From Oscillospiraceae bacterium (GTDB lineage: Bacteria; Bacillota; Clostridia; Oscillospirales; Oscillospiraceae): 63,180 nt of DNA. A model generated the notes under the pieces. That model had not been told where the DNA came from. It saw only the letters and a program-made list of their open reading frames with translations, and made no database searches. Both the position numbers and the translations under genes were made by a program. The stretch lies in NCBI GenBank assembly GCA_031261585.1, contig JAISJJ010000126.1, positions 1 through 63,180 of the forward strand. Direction: 5' to 3'. How positions within the stretch are numbered: the stretch's first letter is position 1; the number at the start of each line of letters is the position of its first letter. This document shows positions 12,288 through 17,071 of the stretch, one piece after another.

Positions 12288-12428
12288 GGCGACCGCGCAG
12301 GGTCGCCCCTACGCAAGACAAAACACGTGAGCGAAAACAAGACCCTGACGCGCACCGCAGAGCGATATTGCAGAATGAAGAATTTTGCGTAGGGGCGACC
12401 CTGCGTGGTCGCCCTGTATCGGTTTGCC
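12288..12428. repeat. partial copy of mosaic module Y plus a GTAGGGGCGACC hairpin
   Basis: 12288-12365 aligns with 56208-56285 (ggcgaccNcgcagggtcgcccctac..acacgtgagcg..aagaccctg..cgcacc). GTAGGGGCGACC..GGTCGCCC lies at 12389-12414. Confidence 0.75.
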
Positions 12429-12474
12429 ACAGTCTCAATTCAGAACTTTCATTAACAATCAAAGGAGAAACAAA

Positions 12475-13020
12475 ATGGATTACTTTAAGGATTACTTTGA
12501 GCGAGAAGCAGCCTACAAAAAGCTGAAGCCCTCCGATATAGCGGACATATCTGACGATGATCTGTTAGGTGCGGTTATGACATGGATGATTGAGTTGTTA
12601 GACGGCAAGTGGAGTGACGAATACAGCATTGTTTCCGCAATGCCGAAACCCTGCATGCTGATTTGGGCAAGCAGCAGTAATTACAACCAGATACACAACA
12701 TGGGTTTGGAAGCAGTATACTTAGAGCATAATTATCGGCAGTTTGCAGAGGCTGCCGCCGAGGGATACGAGGTTATCGGCGCAGATAAATTGGCTGTTGC
12801 AATCAGGAAGGCAAATGAGCGTATTGGACAAATTGTCAAAACCGTTATGCCTGACGGCGACACCTACGATGAAAAGGCGGATAAGTTGATCTTAGACGCG
12901 TTCGAGGAATATATCGATGAGTTTGAGAATGAGTTTTACGAAGCGACAAGAATATACGACAACAATAGACTGAGTGCCGCGTACATCAGAAAACACGCGG
13001 AGTGTTTCGGTGCGCAATAG
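12475..13020 (+). CDS. hypothetical protein, possibly DMP19/DUF4375-like; low-GC
   Basis: Track ORF 12385-13020; real start is ATG 12475 behind AAAGGAGAAA. The central segment NYNQIHNMGLEAVYLEHNYRQFAEAAAEGYEVIGADKLAVAIRKA resembles the NGG..Y/F...GL..IGA pattern of DUF4375 (recollection, weak). A/T-rich third positions contrast with the neighbours. Confidence 0.6.
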   Translation: MDYFKDYFEREAAYKKLKPSDIADISDDDLLGAVMTWMIELLDGKWSDEYSIVSAMPKPCMLIWASSSNYNQIHNMGLEAVYLEHNYRQFAEAAAEGYEVIGADKLAVAIRKANERIGQIVKTVMPDGDTYDEKADKLILDAFEEYIDEFENEFYEATRIYDNNRLSAAYIRKHAECFGAQ

Positions 13021-13029
13021 ACGACGGAA

Positions 13030-13065
13030 CAACCCCGAAATGCCGACACCTGCATTTCGGGGTTG
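13030..13065 (+). terminator. 14-bp stem hairpin between the two islet genes (no U-run)
   Basis: CAACCCCGAAATGC cgacacct GCATTTCGGGGTTG. Confidence 0.4.
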
Positions 13066-13096
13066 CGAAATGTAGTAAACGGAAAGAGAGCGCGTT

Positions 13097-13609
13097 ATGA
13101 TTTGGCGTTATTTGGCACTGATTCCGCTTTGCGGGTTTTATATAGCTGTGCAATTGAAATGGCAGCGCACCCGCGACGCGAAGAACACAAAATGGATGCG
13201 CGCGGTGCAGTGCGCCATTACCGTCGCGATTAACGTGTGGTTTTTGGTGATGCTGAGCAGGTTCGGAGCGGACGCAAACGTAGCAGAGACGGTCGAATCA
13301 ATCATATATATCGTGGTTTCGCCGCTTTTATTGTTAGTCTCGTTCAATCGGGAGAGGACACAGGGTCCCGACGACGAACGCAAGCGCGGCGAGACAACGT
13401 GGCTGTTTCTGCTGGCGGTTGTGTCACTTGTCAGAGCGACGCGAATGTTGTTGTTCGGCGATACCGAGTGGACGCTGAACCACCCTATGATAAACCGCAG
13501 TCTGATTGTGCTGTTTGTCGCGGGTATATTGGTTTGCATAGTGATTCCCGCAGTTTTACTGATTGTTATCGCAATCCGCAAAAAGCGGTCAGACAGAGAC
13601 GACCGTTGA
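13097..13609 (+). CDS. hypothetical integral membrane protein (170 aa, 4-5 TM)
   Basis: GGAAAGAGAG RBS. Hydrophobic segments LALIPLCGFYIAV, AITVAINVWFLVML, IIYIVVSPLLLLV, WLFLLAVVSLV and LIVLFVAGILVCIVIPAVLLIVIAI. Confidence 0.6.
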   Translation: MIWRYLALIPLCGFYIAVQLKWQRTRDAKNTKWMRAVQCAITVAINVWFLVMLSRFGADANVAETVESIIYIVVSPLLLLVSFNRERTQGPDDERKRGETTWLFLLAVVSLVRATRMLLFGDTEWTLNHPMINRSLIVLFVAGILVCIVIPAVLLIVIAIRKKRSDRDDR

Positions 13610-13620
13610 CCTTTTCAATA

Positions 13621-13655
13621 AAAATCGGAGTTGTGCAATCCACAACTCCGATTTT
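13621..13655. terminator. bidirectional rho-independent terminator between convergent genes
   Basis: AAAATCGGAGTTGTG caatc CACAACTCCGATTTT, with A-run and T-run on either side. Confidence 0.75.
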
Positions 13656-13660
13656 CTCAT

Positions 13661-15946
13661 TTACAGCCGATTCCGCTGTATCTTTCCGTTAATCGTCTTG
13701 GGCAGTTCGTCGCGGAACACGACGATGCGCGGATATTTGTACGGCGCGGTGTGCGTTTTTACGTAGTTTTGAATCTCTTTCGCGAGTTCGTCGTTCGGCT
13801 CACGCCCGCTGTTCTTCGTCAACACGATGCTCGCCTTGACGACCTGACCGCGCACCTCGTCGGGTGCGGACGACACGCCGCATTCGAGGACGTACGGCAG
13901 TTCCATGATTACCGACTCAATCTCGAACGGTCCGATACGGTAGCCCGAGGACTTGATCACGTCGTCCACGCGTCCGACGTACCAGAAGTAGCCCTCCTCG
14001 TCGCGCCACGCCGTGTCGCCCGTGTGATAAACGCCGAATTTCCAAGCGTCGGAGGTCTTTTTGTCCTCCAGATAGTAGCCGAGGAACAGCCCCGCGGGCT
14101 TGCCGTTATCCACGCGCACGACGATCTCGCCCGTCTCACCCGACGCCACGGGGTTGCCCTCGGGGTCGATTACATCGAGTGTGTACGCGGGGTTCGCCTT
14201 GCCCATGGAGCCGATTTTCGGGGTCATGCCGACGAAGTTGCCGATCAGAATCGTCGATTCCGTCTGCCCGAAGCCCTCGTAGATCGACAGACCCGTCGCC
14301 TCCTTGAACTTGTAAAACACCTCGGGGTTCAGAGCCTCGCCCGCCGTCGTCGCGTGGCGGATACTGCTCAAATCGAACTTCGACAGATCCTCGCGGATCA
14401 GAAAACGGTAGATCGTCGGCGGCGCGCAGAACGTCGTGATGTTGTGCTTCTTGAACAGCGGCAGTACGTCGTTCGCGTCGAATCGGTCGAAATCGTACGT
14501 GAAAATCGCGCCCTCGCACAGCCATTGCCCGTACAGCTTGCCCCACAACGCCTTGCCCCAGCCCGTGTCGGAGATCGTGAAGTGGATGCCGTTCGGGTCG
14601 ACGCGGTGCCAGTAGTACGCCGTCGCGAAATGTCCGAGACCGTAGGTGTGCGAGTGCGTCACGAGTTTCGGATAGCCCGTCGTACCCGACGAGAAGAACA
14701 TGAGCATCGGGTCGTCGCCGCCCGGCGTGTCGTCCGTGCGCGGGAAGCGCGAACGGTACGTCTGGTACTCTGTGTCGAAGTCGTGCCACCCGTCAACCGC
14801 GCCGTTGCACATGACGCGCAGACGCACGTCCGTACAGTACGCCATCGCCTTTTCCGCTTCGAGATACGCGTTCGACTGCGAGGTCGTGATGATCGCGGAG
14901 ACGGAACCCGCCTTGAAGCGGTAGTCGAAGTCCTTTTCGAGCAGTTGGTCGGGCGCGGGGATCATGATCGCGCCGATTCTGTGCAGCGCGAGGACGTTCA
15001 CCCAGAACTGCCAGTTGCGTTTCAGCACGAGCATCACGTGGTCGCCCTTTTTCACGCCGAGCGACACGAGATAGTTCGCCGCGCGCGCGCTCAGCCGCGA
15101 CATGTCCTCGAACGTGAACCGACGCTCGTTGCGGTCGCGGTCGATGTGCAGCATCGCGAGCTTATCGGGCGACTTATCGGCGAGAACGTCCACCACGTCG
15201 AACGCGAAGTTGTACCGCGCCGTGTTCTTGAACCGAATCGCGAGCGGACCGCCGCTCTCGTCCTCCTCCACGTCGATGAAGTTGTTGAAGATGAGCGGCT
15301 CGTTTTTCGCGAGCGGCGTGATCGTCTCTCCGCGTGCAGAAATAGGTTCTGCGTTCTCGCCGCTTATCAGCACCGCGCAGAACACGCAGTCCGCACCGCC
15401 GACGGCGATCTCGCCGTGCGGGAAACTGCTGTTGTAGTAGATGGAGTCGCCCGCGCCGAGTACGACGCTGTGACCGCCGATCTGTACCTTGAGCTGCCCC
15501 TCCAACACGAGGTCGAACTCGTGTCCGTCGTGGCTGTGCAGTTCAATGGGCGCGGACTGCAACGCGGGGTCGAATTTGTACGTGACCCAGTGCGGCGTTG
15601 CGAGTTTGTCGCGGAACAGCGGCGCGATCTCGCGAATCTCCACGCCCGGTTCAGTCGCGGTGACGCGTCCCTCGCCGCGCCGCGTGACGGTGAAACCCGT
15701 GAGCCGCGCGGTACTCTCGCCCTCGACCAGTTCCGCCATCTCAACGCCGAAAAACTCGGCGCAGTTGCGGATAAACGAGTACGGCAGATCGACCGTACCC
15801 GACTCGAAGCGAACGTATTCCTCCTCGGAAAACCCCGTTTTCTCAGCGGTTTCCGCGGTGGTCAGATTCGCGATTTCGCGCAGTTCCCGCACGCGCGCGG
15901 CGATGCTCAAAAGGTCGGTCTGCGCGCTCTTGGCAGTCTGTTTCAT
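13661..15946 (-). CDS. fusion protein: XRE HTH + cupin + AMP-forming (medium-chain-type) acyl-CoA synthetase
   Basis: Track ORF 13661-16030; start is ATG 15946 behind GGGAGGA. N-terminus LLSIAARVRELREIANLTTAETAEKTGFSEEEYVRFESG (HTH); HSHDGHEFDLVLEGQL..GDSIYYNSSFPHG (cupin); adenylation motifs FFSSGTTGYPKLV, GFGQTES, YHTGD, GRVDDVIKSSGYRIGPFEIE, PKTINGKIQR. Confidence 0.9.
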   Translation of the reverse strand: MKQTAKSAQTDLLSIAARVRELREIANLTTAETAEKTGFSEEEYVRFESGTVDLPYSFIRNCAEFFGVEMAELVEGESTARLTGFTVTRRGEGRVTATEPGVEIREIAPLFRDKLATPHWVTYKFDPALQSAPIELHSHDGHEFDLVLEGQLKVQIGGHSVVLGAGDSIYYNSSFPHGEIAVGGADCVFCAVLISGENAEPISARGETITPLAKNEPLIFNNFIDVEEDESGGPLAIRFKNTARYNFAFDVVDVLADKSPDKLAMLHIDRDRNERRFTFEDMSRLSARAANYLVSLGVKKGDHVMLVLKRNWQFWVNVLALHRIGAIMIPAPDQLLEKDFDYRFKAGSVSAIITTSQSNAYLEAEKAMAYCTDVRLRVMCNGAVDGWHDFDTEYQTYRSRFPRTDDTPGGDDPMLMFFSSGTTGYPKLVTHSHTYGLGHFATAYYWHRVDPNGIHFTISDTGWGKALWGKLYGQWLCEGAIFTYDFDRFDANDVLPLFKKHNITTFCAPPTIYRFLIREDLSKFDLSSIRHATTAGEALNPEVFYKFKEATGLSIYEGFGQTESTILIGNFVGMTPKIGSMGKANPAYTLDVIDPEGNPVASGETGEIVVRVDNGKPAGLFLGYYLEDKKTSDAWKFGVYHTGDTAWRDEEGYFWYVGRVDDVIKSSGYRIGPFEIESVIMELPYVLECGVSSAPDEVRGQVVKASIVLTKNSGREPNDELAKEIQNYVKTHTAPYKYPRIVVFRDELPKTINGKIQRNRL

Positions 15947-15970
15947 GGAATATCCTCCCGATTGGGGCAT

Positions 15971-16253
15971 AAAAAATCCCGCCCCAAAGATGATTCTTTG
16001 AGACGAGATTTGAAAATCCCGCGGTACCACTCAAATTGCGCCTTGCACGAGGCAAGTTCGCCGCTCGCGGATCCATACAGACCCTGTCCTGTGACGGGAA
16101 CACCCGTGAACACCTACTCGCTTGCGCGTTCGGCAATTCAGGCTCGGAAGTGATGGGCTGACGTTCTCTCGCGCACCGTCTCGCACCAACCGACGGCTCT
16201 CTGGAAGCGCGGCGGAACAGCCGTCTTCGTCATAGCTTTTAGAATATTGAATT
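15971..16253 (-). promoter_or_regulatory. T-box riboswitch leader (tRNA-sensing transcription attenuator)
   Basis: Minus strand: AUGACGAAG..CUUCCGAGCC (K-turn region); AGAGAG + CCGUC-GGUUGGUGCGA-GACGG (Stem I distal); AAUUUGAGUGGUACCGCGGG (T-box). Antiterminator: UUUGAG/CUCAAA + bulge UGGUACC + GCGGGAUUU/AAAUCUCGU. Competing 17-bp terminator: AAAUCUCGUCUCAAAGA/UCUUUGGGGCGGGAUUU + U-run (15971-16011). Confidence 0.8.
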
Positions 16254-16259
16254 TTATTT

Positions 16260-16288
16260 AGAATAACACGCCGCGCGCGCGTTGTCAA
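16260..16288 (-). promoter_or_regulatory. sigma-A promoter for the T-box leader
   Basis: Minus strand TTGACA (16288-16283), 17 nt, TATTCT (16265-16260). Confidence 0.5.
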
Positions 16289-16315
16289 GTGGTGCAATCA
16301 GCCAATATTGCGCGG

Positions 16316-17071
16316 TCAACGCCCGAACATTTGGTACAGTTTGACGAAATCGGGTCGCCCGGCAGACTGCATGAGGTACGCGCCGCGCTGTGAAGCGGGT
16401 CTGCGGTTCTGATTGAGATTGGCGATGATCTCGCCGCCCGACAATCTGCCGACACCGTGTCCGTAGTACGAGCCGTCGCCCATGTCGATGACGTTCTCGC
16501 CCTGCCACTCGGGTGTCAGGAGATTCACGTCGGGGTTTGCGAAATAGCGGCGGTCGCCCGCGAGGTAATCGGGGAATTGCCGCATCGAACCCGTCTCCGC
16601 GAGCGCGCGCGTGAGTTTGTGCCAGTTCATGAGCGAGATGCCCGAGAACGCGCGGTCGAACGCCGCGTCGCCGACGACGGCGATCAGCGCGCCGAAGTAG
16701 ACGATCTGCATCGCCGTGGCGCACTCCGTGCCGTACGCGGTGCCGTTTTGGTAGATATCGCGCACGGCGGCAGACGGTTGCGCGCCCGGTCGGAGGTCGA
16801 AACCGCCGTCCATCGTGCGCACCCAGTACCGCATGTTGCAATACGAGTCGCGGAACACCTCGAAACGCAGCCCCGAGCGCAATAGTCTTGCCGCCGAGTT
16901 CACGATCTCGCGCCGCATCGCCAGCTCGAAATCGAGGACGTTGACGCTCGGATAGTCGTATCGCGCGCCGCTCTGCGCGAGTGCGCGCACGCACGAGGAC
17001 TCGATGCCGCCGCTCGTGTAGCGCGCGGCGATCTCATTCACGGGCGCGGCGTTGCCGTTAATCGTTATCAT
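16316..17071 (-). CDS. tgl: protein-glutamine gamma-glutamyltransferase (spore-coat transglutaminase)
   Basis: 251 aa, collinear with B. subtilis Tgl: YDYPSVNVLDFELAMRREIV, YWVR, AVRDIYQNGTAYGTECATAMQIVYF, YFANPDV, EWQGENVI, YYGHGVG. Confidence 0.9.
   Translation of the reverse strand: MITINGNAAPVNEIAARYTSGGIESSCVRALAQSGARYDYPSVNVLDFELAMRREIVNSAARLLRSGLRFEVFRDSYCNMRYWVRTMDGGFDLRPGAQPSAAVRDIYQNGTAYGTECATAMQIVYFGALIAVVGDAAFDRAFSGISLMNWHKLTRALAETGSMRQFPDYLAGDRRYFANPDVNLLTPEWQGENVIDMGDGSYYGHGVGRLSGGEIIANLNQNRRPASQRGAYLMQSAGRPDFVKLYQMFGR

Follow-up and report, generated by a model that had tools for sequence, protein, structure and literature searches.

The DNA stretch analyzed here, called the window throughout, comprises 63,180 nucleotides (nt) of an Oscillospiraceae bacterium (GenBank assembly GCA_031261585.1, contig JAISJJ010000126.1, positions 1 to 63,180 of the forward strand). 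Its minus strand carries a gene for a protein of 761 amino acids (aa) in which an XRE-type helix-turn-helix (HTH) domain, a cupin domain and an AMP-forming acyl-CoA ligase are fused, and the gene is preceded by a leader RNA of the T-box type with the specifier codon AUC, for isoleucine (Table 1). Both the leader and the three-part protein had been proposed from the letters alone (below, the sequence-only reading). The protein architecture is recovered by Pfam as HTH_31/HTH_19, Cupin_2, AMP-binding and AMP-binding_C, the T-box motifs listed in that reading were all found at the same minus-strand positions when the leader was read directly, and a consensus scan recovered the TTGACA-17-TATTCT promoter placed ahead of the leader, with a TG extension.

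Table 1. Features of the leader and fusion gene in the window, followed by coordinates of selected features in related loci (L numbers).
Feature	Where	Position	Strand	Basis or detail
Sigma-A-type promoter	window	TTGACA 16288-16283; TATTCT 16265-16260	-	consensus scan; 17-nt spacer, TG-extended
T-box leader	window	15996..16242	-	RF00230 model positions 1-219; 76 bits, E 7.9e-17
Stem I	window	16142..16236	-	direct reading, Rfam alignment, covariation
K-turn strands	window	AUGACGAAG 16233-16225; CUUCCGAGC 16150-16142	-	read directly
AG bulge AGAGAG	window	16202-16197	-	read directly
Stem I top, CCGUC-GGUUGGUGCGA-GACGG	window	16196-16176	-	distal loop GGUUGGUGCGA = 16191-16181
Specifier AUC (Ile), then A16151	window	16152..16154	-	Rfam register; kept in orthologues
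T-box core AAUUUGAGUGGUACCGCGGG	window	16037-16018	-	read directly
T-box core and antiterminator: UUUGAG/CUCAAA, 7-nt bulge UGGUACC (16029-16023), GCGGGAUUU/AAAUCUCGU	window	15997..16037	-	direct reading, Rfam, fold
Intrinsic terminator	window	15971..16011	-	17-bp stem, 16011-15995 with 15990-15974; loop AUCA; U-run to 15971
Ribosome-binding site GGGAGGA	window	15953..15959	-	read directly
Coding sequence (CDS), 761 aa, HTH-cupin-acyl-CoA ligase fusion, Ile-type clade	window	13661..15946	-	ATG at 15946
XRE-type HTH domain, aa 15-76, acidic	window	15719..15904	-	Pfam HTH_31, HTH_19
Cupin_2 domain, aa 134-191, invariant H139, E143, H177	window	15374..15547	-	Pfam and family alignment
AMP-forming acyl-CoA ligase: AMP-binding aa 256-625, AMP-binding_C aa 675-755	window	13682..15181	-	Pfam
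Gly464 codon in SDTGWGK	window	14555..14557	-	aligned with Acs Val310
Hairpin CGGAGTTGTG-gattg-CACAACTCCG	window	13618..13650	.	read directly; A-tract on one side, T-tract on the other
Val T-box (example)	L004	5308-5552		
Val T-box (example)	L014	5342-5596		
P-loop NTPase and VOR-type oxidoreductase genes	L042	5263-7983		
P-loop NTPase and VOR-type oxidoreductase genes	L044	5315-8031		
P-loop NTPase and VOR-type oxidoreductase genes	L052	5315-8028		
P-loop NTPase and VOR-type oxidoreductase genes	L066	5408-8194		
P-loop NTPase and VOR-type oxidoreductase genes	L068	5247-8003		
ACT/metallo-beta-lactamase gene	L002	5269-6708		
ACT/metallo-beta-lactamase gene	L012	5243-6682		
ACT/metallo-beta-lactamase gene	L024	5412-6842		
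ACT/metallo-beta-lactamase gene	L031	5257-6696		
ACT/metallo-beta-lactamase gene	L040	5419-6870		
ACT/metallo-beta-lactamase gene	L041	2634-4073		

The K-turn, AG bulge and distal loop of Stem I align to the Rfam T-box model RF00230 at high posterior probability, so that Stem I has what the platform for the tRNA elbow requires. GAAG at 16228-16225 pairs with CUUC at 16150-16147 in the K-turn, and the middle elements AGUAGG and CCCGUCA are also present in the minus-strand leader. The 17-bp terminator is contained in the minimum free energy fold of the leader, while a transcript cut before the 3' arm of the terminator folds as a helix, a 7-nt UGGUACC bulge and a second helix. The 5' arm of the terminator is the 3' arm of the antiterminator, a strand common to both structures, and the two folds together show the mutual exclusivity that had been read from the letters. 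A hairpin 3' of the CDS stop codon (10 bp at 13650-13626) was not picked up by the consensus scan; given its flanking A-tract and T-tract, the earlier description as a bidirectional terminator, shared by the CDS and a convergent gene ending at 13609, is a fair one.

At the curated Rfam thresholds RF00230 has no match in the whole window, where the sole Rfam match is a tRNA. With permissive filters applied to region 15900-16350, all 219 positions of the model are matched. The gathering score of RF00230 in Rfam 15 is 93 bits; orthologous leaders score 67-104 bits, several of them above 93. The Rfam alignment has no S-turn (AGUA/GAA) in the specifier loop of the window leader, where 6 nt are deleted at the consensus aaAGUA and the codon has no GAA ahead of it, and part of the score deficit is due to this absence. 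The sequence-only reading had named the lack of a significant RF00230 match as evidence that would speak against a T-box. Such a lack exists in the narrow sense of the cut-off alone, and the E-value is overwhelming. By every structural criterion other than the S-turn and the curated score the window RNA is a T-box, and as a T-box it is mechanistically of a known kind.

The pairing of this leader with this gene, often joined by a valine-tuned counterpart, is conserved in dozens of species of gut and rumen Clostridia. All 120 homologues of the fusion protein among the matches listed have the same three-part architecture, at 61-78% identity, and come mostly from metagenome-assembled genomes of Oscillospiraceae and other Clostridia, with Sporobacter termitidis DSM 10068 in addition. 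A scan with one genome per species found a relative of the fusion in at least 591 species, and 80 loci were kept, picked by the Ile-type-clade peptides GDSIYYNS and TISDTGWG, which means that frequencies among them refer to genomes having an Ile-type copy. The T-box core TGGTACC(G/A)CG occurs 100-400 nt upstream of the fusion gene in 75 of these 80 species-level loci. Leaders missed by the patterns are AUC T-boxes (L040, L051, L047) or are cut by contig ends, and only in L053 and L067 was no leader seen upstream of the fusion gene. AUC leaders are also found in the closest relative of the window protein (76% identity), in S. termitidis DSM 10068 and in three large genomes. In locus L063 a match to a group II intron domain (44.9 bits, positions 30-95) occupies the site expected for the Ile leader, about 180 nt ahead of the fusion gene.

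Stem I was aligned for the window and 69 species. Among its 24 consensus pairs 18 show compensatory changes, and 92.5% of the cells are paired, compared with 76% after column shuffling and 30–47% when the partners are slid by 1-3 columns. The covariation score is 0.495, as opposed to 0.19 in column shuffles (reached in none of 500) and at most 0.154 with slid partners. A strong terminator hairpin and a U-rich tract follow in essentially all 119 leaders examined; the antiterminator geometry with its 7-nt bulge was recovered in 109 of 118 leaders and excludes the terminator in 102 of these 109. Each leader has a near-consensus promoter, with TTGACA upstream of 65 of 66 Ile-type leaders and all 42 Val-type leaders (see below). 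The complete T-box leader of the sequence-only reading is upheld by the full-length model match, by the scores of the orthologues and by this covariation, which together with a conserved AUC is what an alignment of orthologous leaders had been expected to reveal.

The identity of the specifier follows from register and from conservation. The Rfam alignment places AUC under the consensus codon, followed by A and by the CUUC strand of the K-turn helix. The codon lies in a compact loop, 5'-AC / 3'-C-AUC-A, bounded directly on its upper side by the covarying helix GGCUG/CAGCC (16222-16218 with 16160-16156). The specifier thus has a purine (A) directly 3' of it and sits one base above the lower helix. 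This specifier loop is unusually small (16151-16155 and 16223-16224 of the minus strand; alignment columns 21-22 and 100-104). For comparison among loci the codon was read with a K-turn-anchored pattern that left the codon itself free; this returned ATC in nearly all loci in the context CC-ATC-A/C-CTTC-CGAGC. AUC is read in about 72 of about 75 loci with readable Ile-type leaders, and the preceding triplet and the next base vary. The earlier assignment to isoleucine is confirmed by the register and by this near-invariance between variable flanks. Its reservation about an upstream internal loop AGAGAACGUCA as a possible codon site can be dropped, as the codon lies elsewhere, in the compact loop above the K-turn helix; CGU and GUC within AGAGAACGUCA were rejected since that stretch is variable across orthologues and partly base-paired. 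A +1 register (UCN, serine) was also rejected, because the same register reads UAG or UAA in the Val leaders.

These Val leaders belong to a tandem paralogue. At least 48 of the 80 loci contain a second T-box about 250–300 nt downstream of the Ile-type gene, with GUA or GUC (valine) as the triplet in the same position and RF00230 scores of 80-99 bits, and the gene behind it encodes a protein of the same architecture with about 65% identity to the Ile-type protein. No second (Val) copy of the fusion gene occurs within the window. A neighbor-joining tree was built from 120 proteins, of which 104 have typed leaders (69 Ile, 35 Val). Leader type splits this tree perfectly, and the window protein falls inside the Ile clade. 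The full-length alignment gives a best split of 104/104, with 104 in 20 of 20 bootstrap replicates and a between-type distance of 0.374; the N-terminal half performs equally (104/104, and 104 in 20 of 20) at a distance of 0.55, and the ligase domain reaches 103/104 (93-104 over 20 replicates) at a distance of 0.30.

Sixteen positions discriminate strictly between the two clades, 15 of them within residues 12-218. The sole discriminating position in the ligase domain is residue 464 in the motif SDTGW[G/A]K, where all Ile-type proteins (100%) have Gly and all Val-type proteins (100%) have Ala. Aligned with Acs of E. coli, residue 464 stands opposite Val310 and G560 opposite the gate residue Trp414. 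Val310 reportedly lines the acetate pocket of Acs (Ingram-Smith and coworkers, 2006). The predicted substrate of the Val-linked enzyme, isobutyrate, is one carbon shorter, and residue 464 of this enzyme adds one methyl group to the pocket wall. The Val-type copy would then do for isobutyrate and valine what the Ile-type copy does for 2-methylbutyrate and isoleucine.

The catalytic motifs of the ligase are all intact and conserved. The best solved homologue of residues 233-758 is 3ETC, the MacsMa enzyme of Methanosarcina acetivorans (594 bits), and in the alignments W446 corresponds to MacsMa Trp259 (the YW of 3ETC) and G560 to the Acs gate position. The window protein thus has the attributes of a MacsMa-like enzyme, namely the domains of the ANL superfamily, a Gly that replaces the gate Trp of Acs, and the alternate Trp of the pocket. 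The role of the gate Trp414 in Acs and the replacement Trp259 in MacsMa are documented (PMC10455477, PMC6122825), and the preferred substrate of MacsMa is 2-methylbutyrate (PMC10455477). Among NCBIfam models the best match is MbcS (NF047394), at 421.8 bits against an equivalog cut-off of 850, and because of this shortfall we do not regard the window protein as an MbcS orthologue. MbcS selectively activates 2-methylbutyrate and isobutyrate (PMC10026030), and in S. aureus it supplies the primer for anteiso branched-chain fatty acids (PMC10026030, PMC11167679). Judging by the substrates of these homologues, the Ile specifier and the contrast between Gly464 and Ala, 2-methylbutyrate is the most likely substrate of the ligase domain, which would convert it to 2-methylbutyryl-CoA.

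A link to amino acid synthesis is suggested by gene context. The Ile T-box operon runs on into oxidoreductase genes of the same strand in six loci (L009, L042, L044, L052, L066, L068), where the Ile-type gene is followed by genes for a P-loop NTPase, a 2x[4Fe-4S] ferredoxin delta subunit, a VorB-type alpha subunit and a thiamine pyrophosphate-binding beta subunit. Wherever the next start could be called, the gaps are about 0-140 nt, with no second T-box between, and the alpha subunit scores 548 bits against the NCBIfam VorB model (cut-off 399). A VorB-type oxidoreductase is the second enzyme needed, converting the acyl-CoA to the 2-oxoacid precursor of the amino acid. The P-loop NTPase of these operons is CbiA/ParA-like and about 220 aa long. 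A separate T-box (73 bits) stands directly before the P-loop/VOR genes in L055 (5349-5597); its specifier is ambiguous, GCA-U in the Rfam register and UGC-A if the lower helix has 5 bp. In L088, from a 4.2-Mb genome, genes for AzlC and AzlD (12340-13388), a family named for branched-chain amino-acid transport, come directly after the Ile-type copy, and a Val (GUC) T-box with a second fusion copy lies 3 kb beyond them.

Taken with the observed anatomy, conservation and covariation of the RNA, its specifier, the paralogue split and the gene contexts, these results lead us to propose that an Ile-tuned T-box probably controls a ligase that activates 2-methylbutyrate for isoleucine synthesis by reductive carboxylation. 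The specifier AUC would read tRNA-Ile (anticodon GAU), and the riboswitch would attenuate transcription. With charged tRNA-Ile the 17-bp terminator would form and transcription would end before the gene; as uncharged tRNA-Ile builds up, its acceptor end would pair with UGGU of the bulge and stabilize the antiterminator, and the 761-aa gene would be transcribed. The ligase domain would then convert 2-methylbutyrate to 2-methylbutyryl-CoA, a 2-oxoacid:ferredoxin oxidoreductase of the VOR type would carboxylate this reductively to 2-oxo-3-methylvalerate, and transamination would yield isoleucine. In relatives the sister gene behind the Val T-box would lead from isobutyrate to valine by the same scheme. 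The route from 2-methylbutyrate to isoleucine had been raised as a hypothesis in the sequence-only reading, and it is now well supported, since four independent comparative lines point to it, all drawn from sequence: the Val T-box paralogue, the Gly/Ala contrast in the pocket, the substrates of the homologues and the VorB operons. The regulatory logic is canonical, a T-box switching on the route to its own amino acid. A catabolic role, with the ligase running in reverse during amino acid fermentation, was considered and rejected as illogical for a switch that is on when the amino acid is scarce.

The same T-box could serve a different end, with 2-methylbutyryl-CoA used as the anteiso fatty-acid primer under isoleucine limitation so that isoleucine is spared from breakdown. 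MbcS, the best NCBIfam match, has exactly such a role (PMC10026030; PMC11167679), and in the window and in several genomes the fusion gene stands alone without VOR genes. However, the VorB-type genes found in the ligase operon in six loci would be superfluous for a primer-only role, and the separate Val-tuned copy and the AzlCD linkage point to amino acid homeostasis. We therefore consider a primer function in place of isoleucine synthesis unlikely, while noting that the two roles are not mutually exclusive.

A further possibility concerns the substrate: the Ile-type enzyme might activate propionate, with propionyl-CoA reductively carboxylated to 2-oxobutyrate, which would enter the IlvBCD route to isoleucine. 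A propionate route to isoleucine exists in some anaerobes, and the oxidoreductase partner would be needed here as well. Although MacsMa also adenylates propionate (PMC10455477), both of the nearest characterized enzymes prefer 2-methylbutyrate (PMC10455477, PMC10026030), and the partner is named VorB, of the branched-chain type. Moreover, Gly in the Ile-type enzyme and the larger Ala in the Val-type enzyme are the wrong way round for a C3 acid compared with the C4 acid isobutyrate, and we regard this variant as very unlikely.

The N-terminal half of the protein raises the question of what the HTH and cupin domains do beside a ligase for 2-methylbutyrate. Pfam matches HTH_31 (35.6 bits), HTH_19 (34.4 bits) and Cupin_2 (46.5 bits), all above the cut-offs, and HTH_3 is matched as well. 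A single-sequence search of the PDB with this half returned no match. A family-profile search gave 1Y9Q (HTH_3 plus cupin, E 4.5e-9) as the closest solved relative and also matched HppE across the full module; among NCBIfam models PuuR comes first, though weakly (26.7 against a cut-off of 211). The H...E and PH positions of HppE, which we take to be its iron ligands, are matched in the alignment by H139, E143 and H177, and this suggests a metal site in the cupin. The net charge of the HTH is -2 to -8 in all 104 proteins, with the consensus S-E-E-E-Y in the "recognition helix", compared with +1 to +3 in DNA-binding comparators from the same search and -4 in the non-DNA-binding domain of HppE. 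When k-mers and palindromes were searched for an operator at the promoters of the family itself, upstream of 108 leaders, nothing beyond promoter and leader motifs was enriched, and for this reason autoregulation by the HTH is not supported.

The protein could instead act chiefly in transcription, as an XRE-cupin regulator to which a sensor enzyme has been fused, comparable to BirA; the T-box would then set the level of a regulator of other genes. The HTH matches in Pfam, the deposition of 1Y9Q as a transcriptional regulator, the match to PuuR and the concentration of clade-specific residues in the N-terminal half (15 of 16) would all fit such a regulator. Against it stand the acidic HTH and its S-E-E-E-Y helix, the outcome of the operator search and the intact, conserved catalytic motifs of the ligase, and we hold this reading, too, to be very unlikely. 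The same acidic HTH and missing conserved operator lead us to abandon the proposal of the sequence-only reading that HTH and cupin add a second, ligand-dependent layer of transcriptional control. Most of the paralogue-specific residues fall in the N-terminal half, for which a sensor that binds a ligand or a metal is more probable than a regulator that binds DNA; that it senses the cognate amino acid or 2-oxoacid is only a guess.

Several observations weigh against the proposed role of the Ile-tuned leader and its ligase in isoleucine synthesis. The window leader scores below the curated Rfam cut-off (76 versus 93 bits) and has no usual S-turn in its specifier loop, and about one third of Ile-type orthologues have C, not the usual purine, 3' of AUC. 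The ligase does not qualify as an MbcS equivalog. Just 6-7 of the 80 loci, themselves chosen for having an Ile-type copy, show VOR linkage, and in the window no VOR gene was identified, the fusion gene being monocistronic with unrelated neighbors. One Val-type enzyme with Ala464 stands behind a Leu leader (L159, below), which does not agree with pocket size simply determining the substrate. Finally, it is from comparison of sequences that we infer the substrate, the direction of flux and the response to tRNA charging.

Leu-tuned versions were looked for because the logic of specifiers and paralogues predicts that they might exist; carboxylation of isovalerate to leucine is cited in PMC7356843. 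A metagenome scan for the K-turn frame with a CUN codon gave at least 120 stretches, and 22 of those listed have a T-box core. In L159 (4806-5057, minus strand) a CUG-CUC-G leader of 50 bits precedes a protein with the Val-type signature, the Ala464 enzyme mentioned above. In L192 (2964-3228, minus strand) the leader reads AUC-UC-C-CUUC (92 bits), with CUC in the Rfam register, before an Ile-type protein (Gly464); AUC is still present there, displaced by 2 nt. Both CUC leaders have the look of recent specifier switches, standing before proteins nested in the Val and Ile clades, and the expected third, ancient Leu-type clade was not found.

A different enzyme family appears in L167 (1520-1753, minus strand), where a canonical S-turn T-box (110.9 bits) with GAA-G-CUC-G (Leu) precedes an unfused FadD-type AMP-binding ligase. 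In 15 of the 80 loci the gene immediately ahead of the Ile unit encodes an orthologue of this ligase, with 51-56% identity (L003, L019, L029, L032, L034, L037, L039, L040, L044, L047, L048, L051, L053, L061, L067). These upstream ligases often occur with an Amidohydro_2 gene, and five have an N-terminal extension of about 280 aa. No T-box was found within 730 nt before the FadD-type ligase of L067. An apparent third copy of the fusion upstream in L034, L040 and L044 proved to be such a FadD-type ligase, unrelated to the fusion family. Leu-tuned acid ligases thus exist as sporadic specifier switches, and perhaps as another enzyme family, and not as a third fusion clade.

The genes around the fusion gene in the window are a TGL transglutaminase gene, ATP-binding cassette (ABC) exporters, a DMP19-like gene and unassigned open reading frames, none of them related to it in function, and we therefore treat the unit as monocistronic. 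The TGL gene, for a protein-glutamine gamma-glutamyltransferase of the family that cross-links spore coats (16316-17068, minus strand), ends just upstream of the promoter, and its presence makes it probable that the source organism forms spores. An 82-nt tRNA gene at 7188-7269 (plus strand, 54.6 bits) has a long variable arm and the anticodon GUA in the aligned loop, and is of the tRNA-Tyr type. In six other loci (Table 1) the fusion gene is directly followed by a gene for a 479-aa protein with an ACT domain, similar to the small subunit of acetohydroxyacid synthase, and a metallo-beta-lactamase fold. This protein matches no NCBIfam family and could be an amino-acid-sensing hydrolase.

Isobutyrate, 2-methylbutyrate and isovalerate are required by, or of benefit to, many fiber-degrading Clostridia of the rumen and gut, a physiology that has been known for decades. 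These acids are exchanged between members of the community, and in the fusion family the riboswitch specifier names the amino acid that each paralogue serves. The open-access literature searched yielded neither a link between T-boxes and acyl-CoA synthetases nor genes for the activation of 2-methylbutyrate or other branched-chain acids, and we rate the gene as a conserved cargo of a known kind of riboswitch, undescribed in the searchable literature. For a family with representatives in at least 591 species, now annotated "AMP-binding protein", "acetyl-CoA synthetase" or "XRE regulator", the analysis predicts a substrate for each paralogue, one specificity-determining residue and a partner oxidoreductase; better metabolic models of branched-chain acid cross-feeding would follow. 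The analysis also brings precursor salvage into the T-box regulon and draws attention to an HTH-cupin module, as yet unexplained, on an enzyme of the adenylate-forming kind. It is possible, though we hold it to be doubtful as a whole, that hundreds of species of gut and rumen Clostridia share a salvage of branched short-chain acids to branched-chain amino acids under the control of tRNA charging, with Ile and Val ligases, VOR and occasional Leu versions, in which a hitherto undescribed, HppE-like HTH-cupin that does not bind DNA senses the cognate amino acid or 2-oxoacid in a metal-dependent manner and gates the enzyme allosterically. If so, the HTH-cupin would be a new kind of regulatory domain on enzymes of the ANL family.

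Compared with T-box riboswitches of RF00230 (B. subtilis tyrS and glyQS, and the ileS and ilv leaders of Firmicutes), the window leader has in common the K-turn at the base of Stem I, the AG bulge and distal loop, the specifier one base above the lower helix, Stem II and F-box elements, the 14-nt T-box sequence, the antiterminator with its 7-nt UGGNACC bulge, and the competing terminator with a U-run. It differs from them in the compact specifier loop (5' AC / 3' C-AUC-A) without an AGUA/GAA S-turn, in its score below the curated cut-off, and in its cargo, an acyl-CoA ligase fusion instead of a tRNA synthetase, a classical biosynthetic operon or a transporter. The ligase resembles MacsMa (3ETC) in Gly for the Acs gate Trp, in the alternate Trp259 (W446 here) and in GWGK at the position-464 motif, whereas MacsMa is archaeal, has no HTH-cupin extension and has no described link to a T-box or to amino acid synthesis. 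MbcS acts on the same two acids, 2-methylbutyrate and isobutyrate, that are predicted for the Ile-type and Val-type paralogues; unlike them, it is a single enzyme that handles both, supplies fatty-acid synthesis and lacks an N-terminal module.

The N-terminal module has the two-domain layout of 1Y9Q (the Vibrio HTH_3 "regulator"), PuuR and HppE, to all of which its matches are weak, but it differs from all three in being fused to a ligase of the ANL family and from PuuR-type repressors in its strongly acidic HTH. As in the reductive carboxylation of branched short-chain acids by rumen and gut anaerobes, activation of the acid is joined here to a ferredoxin-dependent 2-oxoacid synthase, and in six loci both would be encoded in one Ile T-box operon, whereas for those anaerobes the searchable literature has assigned neither genes nor regulation to the activation step.

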